IMG/VR virus record: IMGVR_UViG_3300037797_000034
Coordinates: 1-43,832 of that record
Source of the DNA: a virus
Lineage: Duplodnaviria; Caudoviricetes
Strand: one strand, 5' to 3'
DNA: 43,832 nt
Each line of letters begins with the position of its first letter. The stretch's first letter is position 1. The notes under the pieces are model-generated. The model did not search any database and had not been told where the DNA came from. It worked only from the letters and a program-made list of their open reading frames with translations. Positions 11,247-40,928 of this stretch are shown piece after piece. The position numbers and the translations under genes are program-made.

Positions 11247-11459
11247 CTATTCGTTTGTCTGGACCTGCTTCTCCCGGTCCTGCGCCACCCCGGCCATCAT
11301 CGCGTCGGCCAACGCCAGCACCGCCTCACGTGTCGACGTCGGCATGTACCTGACCTCCTGCCGCAGCAGCCGCAGCGACATGGCCCGGCCCTCCAACCAG
11401 CCGTCACGCCACTGCTCGCGGGCCAACTCGGTCGCCATCTCACGCGTCCAGGCGGTCAT
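11247..11459 (-). CDS. Hypothetical protein
   Basis: ATGA coupling with the GT2 stop. Confidence 0.55.
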   Translation of the reverse strand: MTAWTREMATELAREQWRDGWLEGRAMSLRLLRQEVRYMPTSTREAVLALADAMMAGVAQDREKQVQTNE

Positions 11460-12598
11460 GCTCGCGCCCCTTCCAGGCGGTAACGGCCGCGCTCCCTGCG
11501 GTGCTTGCCGCGCACGAACAGCAGGCTCACACCCAGCGTGAATACCGCCTTACGGCGCCGCGACATCGGCGTGATCTGCTTGGCGTAGCCGTGCCGGCCC
11601 GTCCACGACGCCCAGTGCTTACCCAGCACCCACTCGCGGAACATCGCGGCTATGTACAGCCACCGGTTGTAGGTGTTCATCACCAGCCACGGCACCAGGC
11701 CCATCGCGGCCTGCCGCAACCCGACCACGGTGGCCACCAGCGTCAGGTTGACCACCATGTGCACACCCAGCCATGCGACCCATCCGGCGACCAGCGGCGC
11801 ACCGGTCCCGGTGATGAGCCAGAACGCCAGCAGCCCATAGAACGCGAACAGCGACACCAAGTCGAACAGTGCCGTGCCGACCACTAGCAGCGATCGCCAC
11901 GACACCAACTGCCGCCGGTACTTCGCCATCGTCTGGAAGTAGCCCGCAGCCCAGCGCCGCATCTGATCCCGGTATTCGCGGAACGTCACCGGGTCTTGGG
12001 TCAGCGCCACCGCCTTGGGCGTATAGCCGACCTTGTAGCCGTCCTTGTGCAGCGCCCACGTGGCGTCCATGTCGGCTGAGATCAGCCCGTTCGGGAACCC
12101 GCCGACGTTGCGGATCGCTTCGGTGCGGAACGCGTACGCCGCGCCGGTCAACACCTGCATACGCCCAACCTTGGCCTGGCAGAGCCGCCACCAGCGCCGG
12201 CCCATCGCGTAGGAGAATCGGCGCGCCCGGATCAGAAAGCCGCGCTCCTGGCGGGGCAGGATCGTCGCGCACGTTGCGTCGAACCCGGCCTCGAGGTCGG
12301 CCATCATCAACTGGATGCAGTCGGGGGTCGGCAGGGTGTCCCCGTCGAAGCCGACGACCGCGTCGGTGTTGATGAGCGGGAGCGCGGCGTTCTGGTTCGA
12401 CGCCTTGTCCCGGAACTCGGTTTCGATGACGGCAGCCCCGGCACGTCGCGCGTGCTCGACGGTGTCGTCGGTGCATGAGTCAGCCACGACGATGACCTGC
12501 TCGACTGGGTACGGCTGGTCGAAGCAGGCCCGCACCGTCTCGGCGATCGCCGGCCCCTCGTTGTGCGCCGGGATGAGAACGGTCGCGGTCAACATCAC
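11456..12598 (-). CDS. Membrane GT2 glycosyltransferase (processive, cellulose synthase/PgaC-like)
   Basis: IPAHNE, DGD, QMRRW motifs; C-terminal TM helices. Confidence 0.9.
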   Translation of the reverse strand: MMLTATVLIPAHNEGPAIAETVRACFDQPYPVEQVIVVADSCTDDTVEHARRAGAAVIETEFRDKASNQNAALPLINTDAVVGFDGDTLPTPDCIQLMMADLEAGFDATCATILPRQERGFLIRARRFSYAMGRRWWRLCQAKVGRMQVLTGAAYAFRTEAIRNVGGFPNGLISADMDATWALHKDGYKVGYTPKAVALTQDPVTFREYRDQMRRWAAGYFQTMAKYRRQLVSWRSLLVVGTALFDLVSLFAFYGLLAFWLITGTGAPLVAGWVAWLGVHMVVNLTLVATVVGLRQAAMGLVPWLVMNTYNRWLYIAAMFREWVLGKHWASWTGRHGYAKQITPMSRRRKAVFTLGVSLLFVRGKHRRERGRYRLEGARA

Positions 12599-12783: not shown

Positions 12784-13725
12784 CTATAGCGAGTCCGCGA
12801 CGCGCCGCAGGGCGCGGTCGCTGCTCCGTGCGTAGATTCGGGTGGTCTCAGGCTTGGCGTGGCCGAGGAAGTCCTGCACGGCGGCCAGGTCGCCGGTCTC
12901 GTCCAGCGCGGTGGTGGCCGCCCGGTGCCGTAGCTGGTGCGGCGTGGTGCCGTCGCCGAGCGCCGCGGAGATGAGCGACGACACCCAGGTCGGGGTCATC
13001 CCGCCGCGCTTGCCGGGGAACACGAACACGGCCGGGTCGCCGAGCCCGTACCGGAAGCCTGAGCCGAGGTGCCCGGTGGCGCGGCGCTCCTGCTCGGCGG
13101 TCAGTGCGGCCAACAGCCGGGGTGCGATACCCACCCGCCGCTCGGTGTCGCGCTTGCCGCGGATGATCAGCCAGTCACCGTCGATGCTGTCCCACCGCAG
13201 CCCGGCGATCTCATGCACCCGCAACCCGCCCTGCGCCGCCAGCAGCAGCATCAACGTCAGCCGGTCGTCCGCCCCGTCGAGGGCGGCCAGCAGCACCGCA
13301 TCAGAGGCCGGGCGTGGCAGCCGCCGCGGAACCGTGATCGGATCCAGCTTCTCCGCCGGGTTCCGCTTGGCACGCCCGGCCTTGACCGCCCAGGCGTAGA
13401 AGCTCCTGACCGCGCCGCGGGCCGACTTGCGGGACTCGGCGTTCCAGTCCTGCCCGCCGAGCCACGCCTCGAGCTGGTCCAGGCTCAGCTTGAACGGGTT
13501 GCGCTGTGGGTACGCCTCGGCGAGTTTACGTAGCTGCCAGCGGCGCTGCCGGATGGTGGTCGGTGATTTGCTGACTCGTAGTGAGGTGGTCCAGCCGTCG
13601 ATGGCTGCCGCCCATGTTTCGGTGTGGTCGTGCCCGAACACTGCGCCCCCCTCGGCGCTCTTCGACCCAGGGGCGTGACCATACTCTTGACCTTGGATTG
13701 TTGGAAGCGGTTCGACGGAAGTCAT
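12784..13725 (-). CDS. int: Tyrosine integrase lacking an arm-binding domain
   Basis: GLRVHE, HQLRH, LGH..ETTRIY catalytic residues. Confidence 0.92.
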   Translation of the reverse strand: MTSVEPLPTIQGQEYGHAPGSKSAEGGAVFGHDHTETWAAAIDGWTTSLRVSKSPTTIRQRRWQLRKLAEAYPQRNPFKLSLDQLEAWLGGQDWNAESRKSARGAVRSFYAWAVKAGRAKRNPAEKLDPITVPRRLPRPASDAVLLAALDGADDRLTLMLLLAAQGGLRVHEIAGLRWDSIDGDWLIIRGKRDTERRVGIAPRLLAALTAEQERRATGHLGSGFRYGLGDPAVFVFPGKRGGMTPTWVSSLISAALGDGTTPHQLRHRAATTALDETGDLAAVQDFLGHAKPETTRIYARSSDRALRRVADSL

Positions 13726-14111
13726 GACGATCGCCGTTCACGCGATGGAGCTATGCCAAGTTCGGCTTCAAGTTCGGTAATCCGCGCCTGCATGGTGGCA
13801 CGCTCCCAATCATCAAGCGTGGCGAGTCGCTTGCGTCGGGGCAGTTCGATGCGACCGGGTTTGGCCGCTTGAGCAAACAACCAAAACACTCCGGCCACGG
13901 CACCGATCACGATGAACAGTTGCCACGCCAGGAACGTCACGCCGCCAGCCATGAGCGGGATGACGACCAGCAGCAGGTTGGTTTCCAAGGGCTCGTCAAG
14001 TTGGTCTCGCCACACGAATCGGGCTCCGAACCAAGCTGCCGTCACAGCGAAGATTCCACTGATGACCCAATAGAACGGGCCGAGCACATCAGGCAACCAA
14101 GCAAAGCTCAT
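13722..14111 (-). CDS. Membrane protein between repressor and integrase
   Basis: 2-3 TM segments; ATGA coupling on both sides. Confidence 0.7.
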   Translation of the reverse strand: MSFAWLPDVLGPFYWVISGIFAVTAAWFGARFVWRDQLDEPLETNLLLVVIPLMAGGVTFLAWQLFIVIGAVAGVFWLFAQAAKPGRIELPRRKRLATLDDWERATMQARITELEAELGIAPSRERRSS

Positions 14112-14500
14112 GACGCCATCCTCAGAACTAATGCGAGCGCGGGGGTGAGCGGAATGCGCTTGCGGAGCCGGGTGATCTCGTTCTCGACCGGGGTGTGACC
14201 GGGAGTCGCGGGTTGGCTTGGTATACCAGCAGGTCTACGCTGGTGAACCGTAATACCGGGCTGACCTGCGGGTTCGTTGCCCATCAACCACTCCAGCGGC
14301 ACGCCGGTTCGCAGCGCCCAGAGGCGCAGGTCCGACCGGCGCGGCCGGTTGTGGTCGTTGCACCACCGGCTGATCGTCCCACGCGAGACGCCTAGCTCGT
14401 CGGCCATCTCCTGCACGGACACGCCGGCGTGGGCCAGTGAGCGTTGCAGCTTCCACCCGAGGGTCCACTCGGGTACGAGCTGTTCGACAATCTGACTCAT
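14108..14500 (-). CDS. Immunity repressor (XRE HTH)
   Basis: EMADELGVSRGTISRW HTH; WALRTGVPLEWL; divergent from the cro-like gene. Confidence 0.85.
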   Translation of the reverse strand: MSQIVEQLVPEWTLGWKLQRSLAHAGVSVQEMADELGVSRGTISRWCNDHNRPRRSDLRLWALRTGVPLEWLMGNEPAGQPGITVHQRRPAGIPSQPATPGHTPVENEITRLRKRIPLTPALALVLRMAS

Positions 14501-14625
14501 GACGCCAGTCTGCCTGACATGTCGCACGTGCGTCAATAGGTAGTGCTTGGTCAACATCGCAGACCCGCAGAATCTCTGAGCCTCGCATCCTTGACGCATG
14601 TGTGACATTGTGCGACAGTGACGCT
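14501..14625. promoter_or_regulatory. Divergent promoters/operators (lysis-lysogeny switch)
   Basis: TTGACG-17bp-GACAGT 6 nt before GTG 14626; TTGACG-18bp-CAGACT 6 nt before ATG 14500 (minus strand); shared 18-bp motif TTGACGCAYGTGYGACAT. Confidence 0.7.
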
Positions 14626-14823
14626 GTGAGCGCAACTGCACGACTCCTGAGCACCGGCCAAGTCGCCGAACGGCTCGGCCTGCACATCCGCAAGATCCAG
14701 CGCATGGCCGAGAACGGCGAACTGCCGTACGTCGAGAAGCTGCCCGGCCACAACGGTCGGTACGTCTTCGACGCTGCCCTCATCGACGTGCTCGCCCGCC
14801 AGCAACAGCGGGAGGCGTCGTGA
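14626..14823 (+). CDS. Cro/excisionase-like HTH (HTH_17/MerR type)
   Basis: LLSTGQVAERLG...IQRMAENGELP. Confidence 0.82.
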   Translation: MSATARLLSTGQVAERLGLHIRKIQRMAENGELPYVEKLPGHNGRYVFDAALIDVLARQQQREAS

Positions 14824-14826
14824 CGT

Positions 14827-15218
14827 GGCAGTCAGGGCACGGAAGGGCTGGGTCCGTCAGGTCTCGGCTGGGCGCTGCGTTTCGTGGCAAGGCCGGTCTT
14901 GGCAGTCACGGCTGGTCAGGTCGGCGCGGGTCGAGTCTCGGCAAGGCCCGGCCTGGCCGGGCAGGTTCGGCGCGGCAGTTCCCGTCAGGGCTAGTCAAGG
15001 CGTCGCACGGCGCGGTTTGTCCGGGCAGGCGTGGCCGGGTTTGGCAGCGCGTGTCTCGGCAAGGCCGGGTCCGGCAGGGCAGGCCGGGTCGGGCTTGTCT
15101 TGGCCGGGCTGGGCTTGTCGTGGTCGATCGAGGCGGTGCGAGGTCTGGCAGGCCAGGCACGGCCAGGTTTGGCTCGTTCGGGTGTGTCAGTGCACGTCTA
15201 GGCGCGGCCGGGCTGGCC
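14827..15218 (+). ncRNA. Pentamer (NN+GGY-like) array 1: six putative guide units
   Basis: Strict 5-nt period; units of 14, 11, 12, 10, 13 and 12-13 pentamers separated by GGC-A-GTC/GGY. Confidence 0.8.
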
Positions 15219-15230
15219 TGAAGTAACAGC

Positions 15231-15255
15231 GGCCCCGCTCACACGGAGCGGGGCC
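15231..15255 (+). other. 10-bp stem hairpin closing array 1
   Basis: GGCCCCGCTC-ACACG-GAGCGGGGCC. Confidence 0.7.
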
Positions 15256-15281: not shown

Positions 15282-15911
15282 ATGGCAGCACCGAAGAAGC
15301 AGGACGAGGGCCAGATCGAGATCAGCCGCATCCCGGCTGAGAGCCTTCGCATCCCCATCGTGGGGACCACTCCGCTGATCGTTCACAGATTTTCGGAGAA
15401 GGCCAAGCGCCAGATGCTCGACAACATGCAAGGCCGCAAGTCGCCGAAGGAGCCGAAGAACCCCGAGGCCGAGTACGAGGCCGCGTTCTACCGGCTCAAG
15501 GACGGGTCGCCCGGCTTCCCGGTCATCGCGTTCAAGGCGGCCACGGTCGGAGCTGCCCGGTTCTACGGGAATCTCACGATGACCTCGCTCAAACAGTCCA
15601 TCTTCTTTGCCGGCGAGGTCGGCGACGACGGACGGATGCTGACCGCGATCCACGGCGAACCTCGCATGCGTGAGGACGTGGTGACGGTCAACCGGTCCGG
15701 TTCGGACCTGCGTTACCGGCCCGAGTTCCCCGAGTGGAGTGCCGTTCTCGAGGTCACGTTCGTCAAGTCGCTCCTGACCCGCAACTCGGTGCTGTCGCTG
15801 CTGGACGCGGGCGGCATGGGTGTCGGGGTCGGCGAGTGGCGTCCCGAACGTGACGGCGACTTCGGCCAATTCAAGATCGACGAGACCAAGGATATCGAGG
15901 TCATCGGATGA
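15282..15911 (+). CDS. Cas7/RAMP-like protein, putative effector of the pentamer arrays
   Basis: IVGTTPLIVH first strand, FPVIAFKAA helix, YRPEF..W strand, C-terminal Gly-rich loop GVGVGEWRPERDGDFGQF. Confidence 0.72.
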   Translation: MAAPKKQDEGQIEISRIPAESLRIPIVGTTPLIVHRFSEKAKRQMLDNMQGRKSPKEPKNPEAEYEAAFYRLKDGSPGFPVIAFKAATVGAARFYGNLTMTSLKQSIFFAGEVGDDGRMLTAIHGEPRMREDVVTVNRSGSDLRYRPEFPEWSAVLEVTFVKSLLTRNSVLSLLDAGGMGVGVGEWRPERDGDFGQFKIDETKDIEVIG

Positions 15912-15915
15912 GCAT

Positions 15916-16320
15916 GGCAGGCGCGGCTCGTTTGGGCATGTTCGGTCTAGGCACGGCTCGTTGTACATGGTCCGGCAAGGCAGGCATGGTCCGTCCTGGT
16001 CGGGCGCGGCGAGTCGCGTTTCGTCGCGGCCTGTTCGGGCACGGTCGGGCAGGTACGGCATGGCTCGGCCCGGCTTTGCGGGTCGTGTCCGGTTCTGGTG
16101 TGGCGCGGCAGTCGCGGCCAGTCATGTCCTGGCGGGTCCAGGCACTGCGAGTCATGTCCTGGCACGGTACGGCAGTCGAGGCAGGGCTCGTCGGGGCCAG
16201 TCTCGGCGCGTCACGGCATGTTCAGACTCGGCTAGGTTCGGCATGGCAGGCGAGGCCAGGCTCGGCACGTCTAGGCCTGTCAGGTCCCGTCCAGGCCCGG
16301 CTCGGTCAGGCAGGTGCGGC
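15916..16320 (+). ncRNA. Pentamer array 2: six putative guide units
   Basis: Units of ~12 (one 4-nt step), 13, 11, 12, 14 and 12 pentamers; same linkers. Confidence 0.8.
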
Positions 16321-16734
16321 ATGAGCCTGCGCGACCAACTGCAAGCGGTGTACGACGCCCACGGTCAGCTCACACCAAAGCTGATCGTGGACGTCGCCCG
16401 CGACGAGACGCACCCGCTGCACTCCCGCTTCGAGTGGGACGACACGGTGGCGGCTGAGCGATACCGCCAGGACCAAGCGCGTGACCTGATCCGGAAAGTC
16501 CGCGTGGTGTACCGCGAAGGCGACGAGAAGAACCCGCCGCAAACCATCCGCGCCTACCACTCCGTGCCCGACGGCGACGGCTACGCCTACCGCTCCACAG
16601 ACGAGATCGTCCACGACCCGCTCCTGACAAAGATGCTGCTCGCCCAGATGGAGCGCGACTGGAAAGACCTGCACCGCCGCTGGTCACACATGGGCGAGTT
16701 CATCGAAATGGTGCGAAAGGACGTGGCGGCATGA
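16321..16734 (+). CDS. Hypothetical protein, partner of the RAMP-like gene (137 aa)
   Basis: LTPKLIVDVARDETHPLHSRFEWDD...QARDLIR; flanked by arrays on both sides. Confidence 0.8.
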   Translation: MSLRDQLQAVYDAHGQLTPKLIVDVARDETHPLHSRFEWDDTVAAERYRQDQARDLIRKVRVVYREGDEKNPPQTIRAYHSVPDGDGYAYRSTDEIVHDPLLTKMLLAQMERDWKDLHRRWSHMGEFIEMVRKDVAA

Positions 16735-16737
16735 CAT

Positions 16738-16801
16738 GGCAGTCGGGGTTTGGCGGGGCTGGTCGGGGCCGGGTCCGGTTTGGCATGGCGGGGCCTGTCC
16801 A
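16738..16801 (+). ncRNA. Pentamer array 3: single unit
   Basis: GGCAGTC linker plus 11 pentamers. Confidence 0.75.
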
Positions 16802-32891: not shown

Positions 32892-33635
32892 TTGGGAGAT
32901 TCTGTGCCGAACGACCGCACTAACGAGAAGGTCGTGGTGGCGTACTGCCATCCCGGCAACATCGACGCCGCCTTCCACGAGTCGCTGCTGGATCTGCTGG
33001 TCTACGACATGGCGTTCCACCGGCGCATCGTCAACGGCGGCGGTCGGCTGGCGCACCAGGCGTCGGCGAACCTGTCGGGGCCGCGTAACGACGTGGTCCG
33101 GAAGTTTCTCGACGGCTCGGACGCCGACTGGTTGTGGTTCGTGGACACCGACATGGTGTTTCTGCCGGACACGGTCGAGAAGCTGCTTGAGTTCGCCAAC
33201 CCGGTCACCGCGCCGATCGTCGGCGGGTTGTGCTTCTCCATCGACAAGGGCCACATCTACCCGACCCTGTACGGGCTGATGGGCGAAGAGGACAACCCGC
33301 AGGTGATTCGGTTCCACGAGTGGGCGCCGGATGCGATGTTCCAGGTGGCTGCGACTGGCACCGGCTGCATCCTGATCCACCGTTCGGTGTTCGAGCGGAT
33401 CCGCGACTTCAAGGTCCCGGGCACCGGGCAGGTCGGTTTCAACGCGGCGTTCCCCTGGTTCCAGGAGACCGCGCACCACAGCCGACCGGTGGGTGAGGAC
33501 ATCACGTTCTGCTGGCGGGCCGGCGTGGTCGGCATCCCCGTACACGTCAACACCGCTGTGCATATCGGGCATGTCAAGCAGCGGCTGCTCGATCTGGACG
33601 CGTATCTGCAACAGCGCGGAGAGGTGACGGCATGA
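32892..33635 (+). CDS. GT-A fold glycosyltransferase
   Basis: WFVDTD, GTGCILI, GEDITFC. Confidence 0.85.
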   Translation: MGDSVPNDRTNEKVVVAYCHPGNIDAAFHESLLDLLVYDMAFHRRIVNGGGRLAHQASANLSGPRNDVVRKFLDGSDADWLWFVDTDMVFLPDTVEKLLEFANPVTAPIVGGLCFSIDKGHIYPTLYGLMGEEDNPQVIRFHEWAPDAMFQVAATGTGCILIHRSVFERIRDFKVPGTGQVGFNAAFPWFQETAHHSRPVGEDITFCWRAGVVGIPVHVNTAVHIGHVKQRLLDLDAYLQQRGEVTA

Positions 33636-33871
33636 AGTACCCGAAGATCAACGGATTCGTCGGTTTCCGCGGTGACAGCGTTCCGCTGGAGCCGGTATCG
33701 GACGATCATCCGATCGTCGCGGCGTTCCCGGATCTGTTCACCGACACCCCGCCGCCCGGGGTGGAGAAGCCGAAGCGGCGGACTTTGAAGAAGGCCGCGG
33801 CCACTCCAGTCGAAAAGCCGGCGGAAAAACCGGTCGAACAGCCGACGGGCACGGAGCAGCGCCCGCGATGA
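33632..33871 (+). CDS. Small head-region hypothetical protein
   Basis: DDHPIVAAFPDLF; ATGA couplings. Confidence 0.65.
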   Translation: MKYPKINGFVGFRGDSVPLEPVSDDHPIVAAFPDLFTDTPPPGVEKPKRRTLKKAAATPVEKPAEKPVEQPTGTEQRPR

Positions 33872-34512
33872 CGGTTGACACGGCTGTCATCGTCCCCACT
33901 ATGCGGCCGGCGAACGCGGAGTCGTTCATGGCTTCCCTGAGCGCCTCGACCGATACGGCCACGGTCTACGCCGTGACCGACGCCGAAAGTGCCGCGGCGT
34001 GGCGCTCAGCGGGCGCCGAGGTGTTTGTGGGCGACGAGGTGTCGTTCGCGCAGCGGGTCAACGCCGGATACCGGGCCACCGACGAGCCGTGGCTGTTCCT
34101 GGTCGGTGACGACGTGCGGTTCCACCGCAACTGGCTCATCAACGCCAAGCTGATCGCGTCCCGCCGCCATCACGTGGTCGGGACCGCCGATCTGGCGAAC
34201 CCGCGGGTGATGTCCGGCGACCACGCCACCCACCTGCTGATCCGCCGCTCCTATGTGGACGAGGTCGGCGCGTCGTGGGACGGGCCGAAGACGGTGTGCC
34301 ACGAGGGGTACCGGCACTGGTTCGTTGACGATGAGATCGTGACGGCGGCCCAGCGGCGGGGCGTGTGGGCATTCGCCCGCTCGTCCGTGGTGGAACACCT
34401 GCATCCGCTGACCGGTAAGGCCGACTGGGACGACGTGTACGAGATCGGCATCGCGCACAAGGACGCCGACGAGGAACTGTTCCGGTCCCGTCTGCTCGAG
34501 CACCTGGGGTGA
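33868..34512 (+). CDS. GT2-like glycosyltransferase
   Basis: VIVPT, LVGDD, FVDDE, VEHLHP. Confidence 0.8.
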   Translation: MTVDTAVIVPTMRPANAESFMASLSASTDTATVYAVTDAESAAAWRSAGAEVFVGDEVSFAQRVNAGYRATDEPWLFLVGDDVRFHRNWLINAKLIASRRHHVVGTADLANPRVMSGDHATHLLIRRSYVDEVGASWDGPKTVCHEGYRHWFVDDEIVTAAQRRGVWAFARSSVVEHLHPLTGKADWDDVYEIGIAHKDADEELFRSRLLEHLG

Positions 34513-35123
34513 TCTCCTACATTGTCGCGTCGAACGACGCGAAGATCCTGGATGCGAACCTGAAGGCCACGCTCGAACTCGCAGGCGAGGATGAGCTGAT
34601 CGTGGTCGATGATCCTCCGTCGATCGCGGTGGCCTACAACCAGGGCCAGTCCAGGGCACGGAACACGATCCGCTGCTACGTCCATTCGGACGTGCAGATA
34701 CTGGATCCGATCCAGTTGCGCGCCGATCTACTACGCACTTGTGTGCCAGCGGTCGGCATAGTGGGAGTGATCGGCAGTTTCGACCGCGTGGTGCCCTGGT
34801 GGTGTTGTAGACAGCCGAAGGGCAGCGTGATCGATGCGCGGACGGGGCTGCTCAACTACGACGGCGGCGGTTATTGCATCTACCTGGACGGGTTGCTGCT
34901 CGCCACCGCGCAGGATCTCACCTGGGACGAGTCGTACACCGGATTCCACATGTACGACCACGACATCTGTGAGCAGATGCTGGCCCGCGGCCTGCCGAAT
35001 TACTGCATACCGGGCGGCCAGTCGGTGCTGCACAACACTCGGAACCCGGCGGACGTGTCCCAACTCGACGGTTGGGACGCGGCCGTGGCCAGGTTCCGCG
35101 GCAAATGGGGGATGGCTGCATGA
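34509..35123 (+). CDS. Glycosyltransferase-like protein (Glyco_tranf_2_5-like)
   Basis: AYNQG, YVHSD, LDGLLLA, FHMYDHDIC. Confidence 0.8.
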   Translation: MISYIVASNDAKILDANLKATLELAGEDELIVVDDPPSIAVAYNQGQSRARNTIRCYVHSDVQILDPIQLRADLLRTCVPAVGIVGVIGSFDRVVPWWCCRQPKGSVIDARTGLLNYDGGGYCIYLDGLLLATAQDLTWDESYTGFHMYDHDICEQMLARGLPNYCIPGGQSVLHNTRNPADVSQLDGWDAAVARFRGKWGMAA

Positions 35124-36295
35124 ACAGGACGCACTGCGGCGGTTGTGGCTCGCCGGGCTTGCAGCCGTTCCTAGATCTAGGGTCTTCGCCGTTGGCCGAT
35201 CGGTTCCCAGGAACCCCCGGCGAGCCGGAAGAAAACTACCCGCTGCAACTGGCGGTATGCACGTCCTGCTGGTTGGCGCAGTTGACCGAGGTCGTCCCCG
35301 ATGGACTGCTGTACGGGGCGGACTACGGGTTCTACACCGGGTCGTCGCCGTCGGCGGTCGAGTACTTTCAGCAGTACGCGGGCTGGGTGAATGACCGCTT
35401 CGACCAGGACGGCAAGTTCTTGGTCGAGATCGCCTGCAACGACGGGACGATGCTCGCCGAATTCGAGTGTCGCACGCTCGGTGTCGAACCAGCCGACGGC
35501 CCCGCCACTGCGGCGCGAGCCAAGGGCCTGTCTGTGGTGCACGAGCCGTTCGGGCTGGACACGGCGCGGCGGATCGTCGCCGACCACGGCCCGGCCGACG
35601 TGGTTATCGCGAACAACGTGGCAGCGCACGTCGCCGACCTGCACGACTTCTTCGCCGGCGTCGAGCGCCTGCTCGCGCCCGGCGGTGTCGCCGTGGTGGA
35701 GGTGCAGTACCTAGCGGACCTGATCGCCGGGAACCAGTTCGATCACGTCTATCACGAGCACCGCTGCTACTTCACCGTCGACTCGTTGGCGCGGGTCGCG
35801 TCGCGGCACGGCCTCGCCGCTGAATCGGTGACCAGGACCTCGGCGCAGGGCGGGTCGATACGGGTCACGCTCTGCCGCGGGGAGCCACATGAGCCGATCG
35901 AGCCGGTGTGGCTTCGGCGGCCGTCGACGTTCCTGAGCCTGCAAGGGCGGGCCGAACAGATCCGGAACCGGCTGCTGGAGCTGATTGACGAGCAGATCCG
36001 TGCCGGCCGCAAGGTCGCCGGCTACGCCGCATCGGCCAAGTCGGCCACGCTGCTGAACTTCTGCGGCATCGGCCCCGACCAGCTCGACCACATCGTCGAC
36101 ACCACACCGCACAAGATCGGCCGCTACACCCCCGGCACGCACATCCCGATCGTCGGGCCGGGCGACCGGCCCGAACCCGACGTGTACCTGCTGCTGGCAT
36201 GGAACTACCTACCCGGCGTGCTGCGCCGCGAACGGGAGTTCATCGATCGCGGCGGCCGGTTCTTGGTGCCGATCCCGTACCCGGTGCTGCTATGA
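35120..36295 (+). CDS. NDP-sugar C-methyltransferase (Zn-binding, class I SAM)
   Basis: CxxC..DLG.SPLA, EIACNDG, ANNVAAH, YHEH, LLAWN. Confidence 0.88.
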   Translation: MNRTHCGGCGSPGLQPFLDLGSSPLADRFPGTPGEPEENYPLQLAVCTSCWLAQLTEVVPDGLLYGADYGFYTGSSPSAVEYFQQYAGWVNDRFDQDGKFLVEIACNDGTMLAEFECRTLGVEPADGPATAARAKGLSVVHEPFGLDTARRIVADHGPADVVIANNVAAHVADLHDFFAGVERLLAPGGVAVVEVQYLADLIAGNQFDHVYHEHRCYFTVDSLARVASRHGLAAESVTRTSAQGGSIRVTLCRGEPHEPIEPVWLRRPSTFLSLQGRAEQIRNRLLELIDEQIRAGRKVAGYAASAKSATLLNFCGIGPDQLDHIVDTTPHKIGRYTPGTHIPIVGPGDRPEPDVYLLLAWNYLPGVLRREREFIDRGGRFLVPIPYPVLL

Positions 36296-37239
36296 AGGCG
36301 CTTATCACCGGGGTCACCGGACAGTCTGGCTCGTACCTCGCCGAACAACTCCGCAACGACGGCCACGAGGTCTGGGCACTGCTACACGGCCAGCACAACC
36401 CCAAGAAGGCTTGGGTCGAGTCGCTGGTCCCCACGATCCGCTGGGTTCCCGGCGACCTGCTCGACCCGTCGTCGCTGCACCGGGCACTTGAAGCGTCGCA
36501 GCCGGACATCGTCTACAACCTGGCCGCGATCACGTTCGTCGGCATGAGCTGGGACCAGCCGACCCTGGTCAGCGAAGTCACCGGCCTGGGCGCGCTGCGG
36601 ATGCTGGAGGCGATCCGCCAGGTCGACCCGCAGATCCGGTTCGTGCAGGCGTCCTCTTCGGAGATGTTCGGATCTAACCCGCCGCCGCAGAGCGAGACCA
36701 CCAAGTTCCATCCGCGTTCGCCGTACGGCGTGGCGAAACTATTCGCGCACTTCACCACCGTGAACTACCGGGAGTCGCACGGGATCTTCGCCGCGACGGC
36801 GATCATGTTCAACCACGAGAGCCCCCGGCGCGGCGTCGAGTTCGTCTCGCGGAAGGTCGCCATCGCCGCGGCCCGGATTTCCCGCGGCCTGGACCGCACC
36901 GTGCGGCTGGGGAACATCAACTCGTACCGCGACTGGGGTTACGCCCCGGACTACATGAACGCCGTGCAGATGATCGGCAACCATGCTGAGCCGGACGACT
37001 TCGTGGTCGCCACCGGCGATTCCCGCCAGGTCAAGGAGCTGTGTGAGATCGCGTTCCGCGAGGTCGGCCTGGACTACCGCGACCACGTGGTGATCGACCC
37101 GCAGTTCTACCGGCCGGCGGACGTGGAGTTCCTGCGCGGCGACGCGTCGAAGATCCGCGACGTGTTGGGCTGGCGGCCGACGGTGCCGTTCGAGGAGATG
37201 ATCGCCCGAATGGTCAAGCACGAACTGGCGCAACTGTGA
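36292..37239 (+). CDS. gmd: GDP-mannose 4,6-dehydratase
   Basis: ITGVTGQSGSYLAE, QASSSEMFG, PRSPYGVAK, FNHESPRRG. Confidence 0.92.
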   Translation: MKALITGVTGQSGSYLAEQLRNDGHEVWALLHGQHNPKKAWVESLVPTIRWVPGDLLDPSSLHRALEASQPDIVYNLAAITFVGMSWDQPTLVSEVTGLGALRMLEAIRQVDPQIRFVQASSSEMFGSNPPPQSETTKFHPRSPYGVAKLFAHFTTVNYRESHGIFAATAIMFNHESPRRGVEFVSRKVAIAAARISRGLDRTVRLGNINSYRDWGYAPDYMNAVQMIGNHAEPDDFVVATGDSRQVKELCEIAFREVGLDYRDHVVIDPQFYRPADVEFLRGDASKIRDVLGWRPTVPFEEMIARMVKHELAQL

Positions 37240-37850
37240 GCGCGCTGGTCTCGATCGTCACCCCCACCATGCCGGGCCGCGAGGCTCTATTGCTGGACCG
37301 GTGCATCCCGTCGGTGCGGGCGCAGACGTGGCCGCACGCCGAGCACGTGATCGTGTCCGACCGCAACCCCGGCTTGGCCGAGAAGATGGCTGCCCACCCG
37401 GACATCCGGTTCGTGCAGATCAACGAGACGTGGCGGGACGGGCACGCCGACCACTGCCCCGGCGCGCTGCCCTGGCAGGTCGGCTCACTGTTGGCGCTCG
37501 GCGAGTACATCGGGTTCGTCGGCGATGACGACGAGCTGCTGCCCGATCACATCGCCCGGCACGTGTCTGTGATGACTGAGCATGACCTGCACTTCACTAT
37601 CTCGCCGGTGCGGTTCGTGGTGCATGGCCAGGAACGGTTTGTCGTCGGCGACGACACGCTCGCGGTCGGGCACGTCGACTCCGACGGGATCATGTGCCGA
37701 GCCGAGGCGCTGCGCACCGCCACCTGGCAACTCGGGGTGGACGCACCAGACGCCCTGCTGCCGCACGACTGGGCCGCCGGCGGCCTGCGCTGGATGTTCA
37801 TCGGCGGCGAGCCGACAGCGATCCACCACGACGGGTGGGCCGCACGATGA
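37236..37850 (+). CDS. GT2 glycosyltransferase
   Basis: VSIVTPT, SVRAQT, FVGDDD. Confidence 0.8.
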   Translation: MSALVSIVTPTMPGREALLLDRCIPSVRAQTWPHAEHVIVSDRNPGLAEKMAAHPDIRFVQINETWRDGHADHCPGALPWQVGSLLALGEYIGFVGDDDELLPDHIARHVSVMTEHDLHFTISPVRFVVHGQERFVVGDDTLAVGHVDSDGIMCRAEALRTATWQLGVDAPDALLPHDWAAGGLRWMFIGGEPTAIHHDGWAAR

Positions 37851-37861
37851 CTGGGGGAAGC

Positions 37862-38869
37862 GTGACGAACGTACTTATCACCGGTGGTGCCGGGTTCGCC
37901 GGCCACCACCTGGTGGAGCACCTCCTGGAGACCACCGACTGGGATCTGGTGGTCCTGGACTCGCTTACCTATGCCGGCCGTACGGATCGGCTTACCGACT
38001 GCGCCGGATACGACCCGGCCCGGGTGCGGTTGCTGTGGCACGACCTGCGAGCCCCGATCCACCCCCACCTGGACGAGCAGATCGGCGACGTCGACGCCGT
38101 GCTGCATCTGGCCGCCGAGTCCCACGTCGACCGGTCCATCACGGATCCGGGCCCGTTCGTGCGAAACAACGTGGACGCGACGCTGAACCTGCTTGAATGG
38201 GCGCGCACCCGGACCTTGACCCACTTCGTGCAGGTCTCCACCGACGAGGTGTACGGCCCGGCGCGCGAGGGTCAGCGTCACGTTGAGTGGGATCCGCACT
38301 TGCCGTCGAATCCGTACGCGGCTTCGAAGTCGGCGCAGGAGGCCCTGGCGATCGCCTGGTGGCGCACCTACGGCGTGCCGGTGGTCATCTCGAACACAAT
38401 GAACATGTACGGGGAGCGGCAGCACCCCGAGAAGTTCGTCCCCAAGGTCCTACGCGCCGCACTGAGCGGCGAACAGATGAATCTGCACGCCCGGGTAGCC
38501 CCCGACGGCTGGGAGCCCTCGGCGAGGCACTGGCTGCACGCCCGCAACCACGCCGACGCGCTGCGCTGGATGATCGCCGAGACCACCCCGGCCGCGTACC
38601 CCGCCGCAGACCGGCCCGACCGCTGGCATGTGGCCGGCGAGGAGTTGGACGTGTTGCAGATGGCCGAGCGGATCGCCGCCGCTGCCGGTCGACCGCTGCG
38701 GTACGAGTTCGTGGACTACCACGCGTCACGGCCCGGTCACGACCATCGGTACGCGCTGGACCCGTCGAAGGTGCACGCCGCCGGGTGGAAACCGCCGATC
38801 GGCGTGCACGAGTCACTGGAGCGGACGGTCCGGTGGGCGATGGCCCACCCGGAATGGCTGCGCGACTAA
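37862..38869 (+). CDS. rfbB: dTDP-glucose 4,6-dehydratase-like SDR
   Basis: TGGAGFAG, HLAAESHVDRSI, STDEVYG, PYAASK, RPGHDHRY. Confidence 0.88.
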   Translation: MTNVLITGGAGFAGHHLVEHLLETTDWDLVVLDSLTYAGRTDRLTDCAGYDPARVRLLWHDLRAPIHPHLDEQIGDVDAVLHLAAESHVDRSITDPGPFVRNNVDATLNLLEWARTRTLTHFVQVSTDEVYGPAREGQRHVEWDPHLPSNPYAASKSAQEALAIAWWRTYGVPVVISNTMNMYGERQHPEKFVPKVLRAALSGEQMNLHARVAPDGWEPSARHWLHARNHADALRWMIAETTPAAYPAADRPDRWHVAGEELDVLQMAERIAAAAGRPLRYEFVDYHASRPGHDHRYALDPSKVHAAGWKPPIGVHESLERTVRWAMAHPEWLRD

Positions 38870-38878
38870 GGGGTATAG

Positions 38879-39508
38879 ATGCCGAACCTGTACGCCACCC
38901 CCGAAGAACTCAAGGCCCGTTTCAGCATCGGCGACAACTTCGAGGACACGATGGTCGAGTCGGCGCTGGACTCGGCGTCGCGGGCCATCGACCAGCACTG
39001 CCAGCGCATCTTCTATACGACGGCATCCACCACGGCGACGTTCGTTGCCACGGACCGGTACCGCGTCAAGCTCGCTGATACCGACGTGTGGGTTGGCGAC
39101 CTCGTCACGGTCACCAGCCTCAAGACCGACGCCGCCGGCGACGGGACGTTCGAGACGACGTGGGCCGCGACGGACTACCAACTGTGGCCGGCGAACGCGG
39201 CCAGCGGCCCGGAGGCGCGGCCCTACTCCGAGGTGCGTGCGGTCGGGGCGAATCTGTTCCCGGTGCCGTACAGCCGGTCGCAGCGCGCAGACCGGGTGCA
39301 GATCGTCGGCACGTTCGGCTGGCCCACCGCGCCGCCGTCGGCGGTGAAGGAAGCCTGCCTGATGCTGGCTGCTGAGCTGTTCAAGCTCAAGGACGCCCCG
39401 TTCGGGATCGCCGGCGTCTCTGATTTCGGCGTGGTGCGGATCCGGGAGAACCCGAAGGTCGCCTCGTTGCTGATGCCGTATCAGCGGTTCTCGGTGCTGG
39501 TGGGCTGA
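38879..39508 (+). CDS. Head-tail adaptor
   Basis: YATPEELK...ASRAID...FGW..P..VKEACL. Confidence 0.8.
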   Translation: MPNLYATPEELKARFSIGDNFEDTMVESALDSASRAIDQHCQRIFYTTASTTATFVATDRYRVKLADTDVWVGDLVTVTSLKTDAAGDGTFETTWAATDYQLWPANAASGPEARPYSEVRAVGANLFPVPYSRSQRADRVQIVGTFGWPTAPPSAVKEACLMLAAELFKLKDAPFGIAGVSDFGVVRIRENPKVASLLMPYQRFSVLVG

Positions 39509-39906
39509 TGGCCACGGTGCAGGAGATCCGCGAGGGCATCGACGACCGGCTCGCCACCATCGCCGACTTGCGGCACAGTCCCGTCGTGCCGGGGGTCGTC
39601 AACCCGCCGCACGCGTTCGTCAAGCGTCGTCAGACCACGTTCGGCGTATCCATGGACGGCGAGGACGACGTAACGTTCGCGGTCACCGTCCTGGTGTCGT
39701 GGGCCGACCAGACGACCGCCCAAGAGTCTCTCGACGAATACCTGGCGTCGACCGGGGCCAAATCCATCAAGGCCGCCATCGACGCCGACCCTACGCTTGG
39801 CGACATCGTCGACTTCGCGCACGCGACGATCGTTGAGGACGAGCGGATCACGGCGTTCTACGGCGTCGACTACCTGGCCGCAGACATCGTCGTCGAGGTG
39901 GGCTGA
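39508..39906 (+). CDS. Tail terminator/neck protein
   Basis: Synteny; size; DPTLG motif. Confidence 0.7.
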   Translation: MATVQEIREGIDDRLATIADLRHSPVVPGVVNPPHAFVKRRQTTFGVSMDGEDDVTFAVTVLVSWADQTTAQESLDEYLASTGAKSIKAAIDADPTLGDIVDFAHATIVEDERITAFYGVDYLAADIVVEVG

Positions 39907-40928
39907 TGCGCTGGGTTGTGTGCCACCCCGGCCCCGCGTTCAGCGTCCACGACGTGTACGCAGGCTGGATCGAGGCCCTTGAGGAGCTCGGCCAGCAGGT
40001 GCAGATCTTCAACCTCGAGGACCGGCTCACCTTCTACGACGCGGCCTACTTCAACGTTGCCGAAGGTTCGTTCCGCAAGGCCGTCCCCCCGGAGCAGGCC
40101 GTCGAGCTCGCGGTCAACGGGCTGTACGCGCCGCTGTACCGGTTCCGCCCGCACGTGCTGCTGATCGTCTCGGCGTTCCTGATTCCGACCGAGTTGATGG
40201 ACCTGGCCCGTGCCTACGGCACCAAGGTCGTGGTCCTGCACACCGAGGCCCCGTACGAGGACACCCGCCAGCTCGACGTTGCCGCGCACGCCGACCTGAA
40301 CCTGCTCAACGACCCGGTGAACATCGACCGCTACCGGGCCGTGGCGCCGACCGAGTACATGCCGCACGCCTACCGGCCGAAGCTGCACCGCCACGGCCCG
40401 ATGGACAAGGACCTGGCCGCGGACCTGGCGTTCGTCGGGACCGGGTTCGAGTCGCGCATCGAGTTCTTCGAGGCCATGAACCTCGACGGGCTGGATGTGC
40501 TGCTCGCCGGGAACTGGCAGCGGCTCTCCGAGGATTCTCCGCTGCGCAAGTACGTGGCGCACGACATCAAGCAGTGCGTGGACAACTCCGAGGGCGTGCG
40601 GATCTACCAGTCGGCCAAGCTGGGGTTGAACCTGTACCGCCGCGAAACCGTGGACGGCGACTCGCACGCCGGCTGGGCGATGGGTCCGCGCGAGGTCGAG
40701 ATGGCCGCGGTCGGGTTGCCGTTCCTACGCGACCCCCGCGGCGAGGGCGACGAGGTGCTGCCGATGCTGCCCCGGTTCGACTCGCCGGACGAGGCGGCCG
40801 AACTGACCCACTGGTGGCTGAACCATGAAGGACTTCGGGCCGAGGCCGCACGGCAGGCCCGGGAAGCGATCGCCGACCGGACGTTCGCGAGTAATGCTAA
40901 GGAGTTACTCCGACTGCTTGACGCGTAA
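39906..40928 (+). CDS. GT-B glycosyltransferase (CgeB/Glyco_trans_1_2-like)
   Basis: DLAFVGT, YQSAKLGLN, PREVEMAAVG. Confidence 0.82.
   Translation: MRWVVCHPGPAFSVHDVYAGWIEALEELGQQVQIFNLEDRLTFYDAAYFNVAEGSFRKAVPPEQAVELAVNGLYAPLYRFRPHVLLIVSAFLIPTELMDLARAYGTKVVVLHTEAPYEDTRQLDVAAHADLNLLNDPVNIDRYRAVAPTEYMPHAYRPKLHRHGPMDKDLAADLAFVGTGFESRIEFFEAMNLDGLDVLLAGNWQRLSEDSPLRKYVAHDIKQCVDNSEGVRIYQSAKLGLNLYRRETVDGDSHAGWAMGPREVEMAAVGLPFLRDPRGEGDEVLPMLPRFDSPDEAAELTHWWLNHEGLRAEAARQAREAIADRTFASNAKELLRLLDA

Follow-up and report, generated by a model that had tools for sequence, protein, structure and literature searches.

VIPR was described in Escherichia phage SUSP1 and in a Pseudomonas fulva prophage as a combination of the RAMP protein Vipr, vrRNAs built of GGY/NN repeats, and vap (10.64898/2026.04.26.720920, 10.64898/2026.04.26.720927). 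In the SUSP1 work, the RNA is described as coated by Vipr; its NN dinucleotides pair with DNA so that one base in three is passed over, and a gene bound within its body is repressed. A match of 80% is the published cut-off for a natural VIPR target, and the targets published so far comprise satellites, REP elements, the loci of other VIPR systems and the lysis–lysogeny regulators of prophages (bioRxiv 10.64898/2026.04.26.720920). A described precedent for the guide considered here is SUSP1 vrRNA4, which is directed against the active-site codons of the F5 satellite recombinase with the wobble bases skipped, so that escape would cost enzyme activity (10.64898/2026.10.15.759431). The second system of relevance is RosmerTA, an anti-phage module of a toxin, RmrT, and a Zn-peptidase antitoxin, RmrA (bioRxiv 10.1101/2022.05.11.491447). 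RmrA is reported to carry an N-terminal HTH domain, which is suggested to be cleaved, the RosmerTA of Gordonia phage Kita is reported to be anti-phage (PMC10440598), and RosmerTA is listed third among the defence systems of actinobacterial prophages (PMC10023795).

The DNA analysed here, called the window in what follows (the whole stretch of 43.8 kb), is a temperate phage record with a GC content of 67% and a completeness of 76%. Most of the cultured phages with relatives of its capsid and Vipr proteins infect Gordonia or Mycobacterium, and the best named relative of its integrase is from a Jiangellaceae MAG (68%). A 5-nt period is present in three tracts, all on the + strand at about 14.8–16.8 kb and nowhere else in the window, and no 5-nt register was found on the − strand of the window. 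The tracts parse into 13 guide units with 4-nt GGCA linkers between them, and they lie behind a cI-like repressor gene (14108..14500, − strand), which is divergent from the VIPR operon, and of a xis/cro-like HTH_17 gene (14602..14823, + strand), which heads a rightward operon running on into the VIPR locus. Array A (14827..15215, + strand) begins 3 nt past the stop codon of the xis/cro-like gene and consists of six GGCA-separated guide units in the staggered layout. It is followed by a 10-bp hairpin (15231..15255, + strand; folding z −3.0 for a folded stretch of 66 nt), which is identical in sequence in the nearest relative, L001, and then by vipr (15282..15911, + strand), whose 209-aa product is predicted from homology and a structure model to be a RAMP-fold guide-binding protein. 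Array B (15916..16323, + strand) has six guide units, one of them irregular; a 4-nt ACAT step at 15965–15968 replaces GGCA there and interrupts one unit. A conserved 137-aa partner gene (16321..16734, + strand), vap-like by position, matches phrog_15946 (E 3e-29), with no match in Pfam or PADLOC, and separates array B from array C (16737..16800, + strand), which is a single guide unit. No promoter or terminator consensus was found at the locus in a scan for the sigma-70 consensus, which also revealed no internal promoter. The possibility that the arrays are protein repeats was rejected, because their open frames miss the codon-position GC pattern of real genes.

The 209-aa protein matched the SUSP1 Vipr (PDB 36pp) with an E value of 2.5e-5 in a single-sequence phmmer search, and a profile of its family (31 sequences) matched SUSP1 Vipr with an E value of 6.6e-12. 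Its structure model (pLDDT 84) resembles Csm3/Cmr RAMPs, with a best E value of 5e-6, and no cas genes were found among the 43 window ORFs scanned. The 13 units are composed of about 9–15 pentamers, each with a GGY-like triplet and a variable NN; in the first unit of array A (unit 1), 7 of the 14 triplets are GGY and 4 are GTC. Thus, the locus shares with the VIPR of SUSP1 and P. fulva a Vipr homologue, pentamers with variable NN, 9–16 repeats per guide and the wobble skip, without which the target matches described below are not obtained. Also shared are the staggered array layout (fig. S18 legend, 10.64898/2026.04.26.720920) and the lack of a self-target: no self-target at 80% or above was found in the window, a record that is 76% complete, and the best self-match of unit 1 in the phage record is 19/28. 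Unlike the published VIPR systems, this one resides in an actinomycete-type temperate phage, its scaffold triplets are often GTC or TGC, and it comprises three arrays with 13 units. The locus is a VIPR locus of the staggered layout, and unit 1 is predicted to be a vrRNA guide.

Unit 1 occupies positions 14831..14900 (+ strand), with 14 GGY-like/NN pentamers between GGCA linkers at 14827–14830 and 14901–14904, and has no notable fold of its own (z −1.1). The original prediction, made from the letters of the window, was that this unit decodes to the HExxH motif of ImmA/IrrE metalloproteases. Its 14 NN pairs and their reverse-complement decoding were reproduced exactly; its end coordinate, 14903, overshoots by 3 nt into the next linker. 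Read with a one-base skip, the reverse complement gives [KN]-R-[FL]-T-T-A-[HQ]-[DE]-L-G-[HQ]-L-V-L, so that in Peptidase_M78 (PF06114) genes the predicted partner of unit 1 is the coding strand at the codons for R-F-T-T-A-H-E-L-G-H-L-V-L.

The exact 28/28 target was found in none of the viral, genome and metagenome collections, and the search pattern put forward in the original prediction returned near-exact matches instead: 11 loci match unit 1 at 27/28, and all of them lie in Peptidase_M78-type HExxH genes, in coding sequence. A scan with a 20-base core gave 46 genome loci, the best sites being all in frame and reading R-F-T-[TA]-A-H-E-L-G-H. The seven at 27/28 (three Streptomyces, Kitasatospora, Paractinoplanes, Polymorphospora and Dactylosporangium) belong to two clades and are all actinomycete, against 14 of the 46 loci with actinomycete names, and a 26-base scan of metagenomes added four more loci at 27/28. 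The sole mismatch at 27/28 is every time the first target base, opposite the guide's final variable base; in one metagenome locus (L099) it is a U:G wobble, and all 28 positions pair there if one U:G is allowed. A relaxed scan of viral sequences gave 11 loci at 24–26/28, all of them PF06114, and in 11/11 viral and 7/7 best genome matches the stretch covered by the guide includes the HExxH of a PF06114 domain. Unit 1 reads the HExxH codons of ImmA/IrrE-family genes, as had been proposed. The proposal that the skipped base falls on the wobble position is borne out as well, with a conservation of 89%, 97% and 48% at codon positions 1, 2 and 3 in a set of 51 different sites, chosen for scores of 25/28 or above, and the best matches point to an actinomycete host. 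No such gene had been noticed in the phage, and no PF06114 gene is present in the record (76% complete). A 129-aa hydrophobic ORF (13722–14111, − strand) between the cI-like gene and the tyrosine integrase (12784–13725, − strand) occupies a spot where an immA gene often sits, and was rejected as immA; it has no HExxH.

Short motifs may arise by chance in a GC-rich repeat, and the lack of an exact match in any of the three collections could be taken to favour a fortuitous likeness. For a looser M78 motif of 10 codons, which was picked post hoc, the probability is about 7e-10 per position, given the NN frequencies, and about 2e-7 over the arrays of the window. On 52 M78 loci of actinomycete genomes, reading with a one-base skip gave 12 sites at 21/28 or above, skips of 0, 2 or 3 bases gave no such site, and 60 shuffled versions of unit 1 never exceeded 20/28. 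Sites with at most three mismatches to unit 1 were present in 14 of 401 Actinomycetes genomes, against none for a reversed-pattern control. The skip, shuffle and reversed-pattern controls thus refute a chance likeness, to which we attach practically no credence; the recurrence of such guides in related phages, described below, speaks against it too.

The M78 genes that unit 1 matches best are of a particular kind. All seven best genome matches are fusions of HTH_3 and M78. Among the 11 loci at 27/28, ten encode XRE-HTH–M78 proteins that score as RmrA, an N-terminal HTH fused to a Zn-peptidase, in PADLOC, with E values of 3e-79 to 1e-161; at L099 the contig ends before the N-terminus. The seven genome loci are all RmrA by PADLOC, four of them with an RmrT gene in front, and the four metagenome loci include three RmrA, one with RmrT, and one stand-alone gene (L098), whose best PADLOC match is capP. 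In total, RmrT precedes the target at 5 of the 11 best loci (E at most 4e-65 at L056, L058, L064 and L087, and 2e-13 at L101). Pairs of RmrT and RmrA with sites at 25–26/28 were also found in three proviruses (L170, L040, L044). RosmerTA is the predicted target and not part of the phage, and it is met with in actinobacterial proviruses and defence islands. Six chromosomal target neighbourhoods comprise two among defence genes (one with pPIWI-RE and Tiamat, one with pPIWI-RE and RAMP genes), one in an island of low GC content, one close to a helicase gene and an IS, and two with no clear mark.

In an unbiased sample of 400 Actinomycetes genomes, taken without the centre genome, 13 carried a site at 25/28 or above, 12 of them in full RmrA-type genes and one in a broken gene. 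Most of these sites read H-R-F-T-A-A-H-E-L-G-H-L-V-L, the second mismatch being a U:G wobble. The 13 matches are not independent, as 11 full-length ones share PDLC03955 as their best RmrA model, and a PADLOC RmrT lies in front of 1 of the 13. As a background we used 52 of 58 M78 matches from 61 genomes, leaving out six in five unpublished genomes (G011, G019, G028, G040, G047); 45 had HExxH, and 43 remained after the removal of the centre genome. Of these, 15 are fused and 28 unfused, which differs from the unbiased matches (Fisher p 4e-5), and the fused ones score 20.0 versus 17.0 for the unfused ones (p 0.007), although both p values overstate the case, because the 11 full-length matches belong to one RmrA subfamily. 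Only 2 of the 15 fused background genes reach 80%.

The commonest rmrA-type targets are preceded by a conserved gene of 260–300 aa (at L102, L103, L106–L108, L110–L115, L060, L074, L086 and L089), which gave no PADLOC match to RmrT, and no Pfam match in the four members scanned. In front of the remaining unbiased matches its length is 260–280 aa. A comparison of this family with RmrT by hhalign gave a probability of 1.75%, in a test that also linked no known RmrT families to each other, and the family was not found in cultured phages. We regard it as a candidate new RmrT-like toxin.

Judging from these sequence comparisons, the best target of unit 1 is probably the RosmerTA antitoxin gene rmrA rather than a classic immA. 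The original prediction was therefore right about the family and probably wrong about its member: it had named the anti-repressor proteases of prophages and ICEs, yet RmrA-type genes make up all but one of the 11 loci at 27/28, and classic immA-like genes do not exceed 19/28. The latter figure comes from cultured phages, in which an immA-like query returned 266 records; the five that were scored, IrrE-like or metalloprotease genes of Gordonia and Mycobacterium phages, match unit 1 at 13–19/28 and seven other guides at 73% or less. The immA-like genes of two viral contigs (L273, L271) match unit 1 at 16–17/28. Hence, among these five cultured-phage and two contig genes, no classic ImmA target, a stand-alone M78 gene beside a repressor and an integrase, was found at 80% or above.

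A related interpretation, which builds on the original prediction, is that stand-alone proteases of the ImmA/IrrE/CapP type are silenced, which would block the induction of prophages, ICEs and protease-controlled defence operons. The motif is common to the whole family, and stand-alone M78 genes do match unit 1, at 27/28 in L098, at 26/28 in 8 of the 46 genome loci, none of them actinomycete, and at 24–25/28 in five viral genes. Two of these five lie before a small hydrophobic gene by an integrase, another two come immediately after an HTH gene, and one is near HTH-like genes. There is also a parallel in the immobilisation of a satellite by SUSP1 through its recombinase (bioRxiv 10.64898/2026.10.15.759431), and CapP/CapH modules are reported to control defence operons (10.1101/2022.04.27.489752). 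However, besides the low scores of the classic actinophage genes, no intact stand-alone gene occurs among the 13 unbiased actinomycete matches, though most background M78 genes are unfused, and the matches in L273 and L276 precede the small hydrophobic gene, the immA-like gene of L273 being a distinct one at 16/28. We consider silencing of stand-alone proteases unlikely. The arrangement in the two contigs (L273:1924-2864, L276:358-1339), in which a stand-alone M78 gene matching at 25/28 and then the small hydrophobic gene converge on a phage integrase, is possibly a two-gene defence cassette.

Guides of this kind recur in related phages. From 116 Vipr loci, which include some contigs fetched twice, 740 distinct units were parsed, and nine of them, unit 1 and eight others, decode to H-E-x-G-H, every one in the orientation complementary to the coding strand, though the L200 unit among them is short and its parse is poor. 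Shuffling gave a mean of 0.06 such units and a maximum of 2 in 1000 shuffles. The guide of a second phage (L202) has sites in 7 of 401 genomes, two of them exact, against none for the control. This tally includes G011, whose locus (L258) was left out of the classification; the six classified targets are all RmrA, three with RmrT at E values of at most 1e-5 and a fourth at 0.006. When 539 guides of at least nine pairs were compared with 57 rmrA-type regions, 11 reached 85%, as compared with 1–2 after shuffling, seven of them on HExxH, two on a second M78 motif and two elsewhere. Since the 57 regions were partly chosen with these guides, the count on HExxH is not an independent test, whereas the pair on the second motif is. 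That motif (E-A-N-x-F-A-A ... L-M-P) lies 22–25 codons past HExxH and is matched by the guides L192:3757 and L008:4142.

The recurrence might reflect detection rather than selection: guides may be picked up from many mobile genes without special selection for this target, and remain recognisable only where they sit on an ultra-conserved motif. The 12 remaining guide units, for which no match at 80% or above was found in a small pool of loci, are compatible with this, and so is the shared descent of some H-E-x-G-H guides, which are scattered over a quick, poorly resolved Vipr tree with seven changes (49 of 500 shuffles as low). We nevertheless think such a detection effect improbable, as one or other of the two M78 motifs accounts for 9 of the 11 strong guide matches, the nine H-E-x-G-H guides are unlike one another in length, start codon and register, scaffold letters and array position, and the nearest Vipr relative, L001, at 94% identity, has no HExxH guide in its parsed arrays. 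Several origins of these guides are likely, given their differences in length, register and scaffold and their spread over the Vipr tree. Comparison of the window with L001 indicates that guides drift and get replaced: the units at 16175, 16249 and 16742 share 7–8 NN pairs in register with L001 units, and array A shares none.

An M78 gene is carried by 1 of 8 guide-bearing relatives versus 2 of 27 other Vipr records, numbers that are uninformative about self-avoidance; in the M78 gene of that guide-bearing relative (L269, G412:C1:40472-40657), HExxH is replaced by HALAH, and the match to the phage's own guide is 17/22. Vipr and staggered arrays are also found in cultured Gordonia and cluster F mycobacteriophages (Gordonia phage UmaThurman, L095 3617-3927; L096, L097), the UmaThurman array being annotated as hypothetical protein gp40; three cultured Vipr phages with arrays contain no HExxH guides. 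Another recurring decode among the guides of related phages is H-x-L-R-H, the tyrosine recombinase motif; it occurs in three guides in coding-strand orientation (L016:3999, L203:2317, L238:4024) and one in the opposite orientation, with 0.17 expected.

What would a phage gain from a guide against rmrA? It is about an even call, in our judgement, that unit 1 is used to repress RosmerTA-like modules carried by the host or its resident prophages, likely early in lytic growth. By analogy with SUSP1, Vipr would coat the vrRNA, the NN pairs would pair with DNA with every third base skipped, and binding inside rmrA would repress the gene. Expression early in lytic growth is suggested by the spot of the locus behind the xis/cro-like gene and divergent from cI. 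Repression may disarm the module, for example because the protease that acts as its trigger switch is lost, or because less of the entire two-gene transcript is made. With the catalytic codons aimed at and the wobble bases skipped, one guide could cover many divergent rmrA alleles. We favour such counter-defence because RosmerTA is anti-phage and is found in actinobacterial prophages.

The position of the target site allows for the opposite outcome. At the five loci measured, the site lies 596–683 nt past the stop codon of the toxin gene, and attempts to transform an rmrA deletion are reported to have failed (bioRxiv 10.1101/2022.05.11.491447), so that a block there might free the toxin. The guide would then be a weapon, silencing the antitoxin and releasing the toxin of a rival element, so that a lysogen aborts an incoming temperate phage that carries RosmerTA or blocks its settling. 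Consistent with that, the toxin precedes the antitoxin and the site is inside the second gene, rmrA-type two-gene cassettes matching at 24/28 are carried by temperate phages (the cultured Gordonia phages BBQValindra and Howe, and prophiGD44-1), and published VIPR targets are mostly rival phages (bioRxiv 10.64898/2026.04.26.720920). Yet the locus belongs to the rightward operon, which is divergent from cI and likely off in a lysogen, the sigma-70 consensus scan offered no internal promoter, and cell killing would be costly in the phage's own lytic cycle. Such use as a weapon therefore seems doubtful to us, and we keep to counter-defence as the preferred role of unit 1. For the family as a whole, we lean slightly towards the reading that actinophage VIPR has repeatedly gained guides against the zinc motif of the RosmerTA antitoxin and may act as a programmable, family-wide anti-defence system, either disarming the modules or turning the toxin of a rival prophage on it.

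VIPR itself, staggered arrays, wobble skipping and the targeting of active-site codons are already in print. Whereas vrRNA4 has six repeats and one satellite family as its target, unit 1 has 14 repeats and is predicted to read a motif of a wide family in a protease-repressor antitoxin, with nine parallel guides. Phage crlRNAs (Cracr), which silence CRISPR-Cas and CreTA toxin genes, are likewise small RNAs repressing host immunity, including its toxin–antitoxin layer; they are reported to use host Cas and to pair contiguously, whereas the VIPR locus brings its own Vipr and a gapped code (10.1101/2024.10.29.618823). The M78/RosmerTA target class, for which a guide is seen in nine phages, was not found in print. 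ImmA and IrrE are absent from the main text and supplement PDF of 10.64898/2026.04.26.720920, whose Data S1–S4 may list such targets, and from the available main texts of 10.64898/2026.10.15.759431 and 10.64898/2026.10.21.760802, whose supplementary tables may do so. No paper treating vrRNA and RosmerTA together was found in the literature searched, which covers few subscription journals.

A recurrent guide against an anti-phage toxin–antitoxin module, if true, would extend VIPR from phage-against-phage conflict to RNA-guided counter-defence, and would offer a handle on how RosmerTA gets switched on, a question left open by the RosmerTA papers in their available parts. Both halves are present in culturable Gordonia terrae phages, Vipr in UmaThurman, Pipp, Ecliptus and ODay, rmrA-type cassettes in BBQValindra, Howe and Opie, and RosmerTA in Kita, which makes the idea directly testable.

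Apart from the VIPR locus, the window has a sugar-handling block after the major capsid gene (32892–40928), with several glycosyltransferases, a C-methyltransferase and two GDP-mannose dehydratase-like genes, which may serve virion or host-surface glycosylation. One further glycosyltransferase gene lies near the integrase gene (11456–12598).
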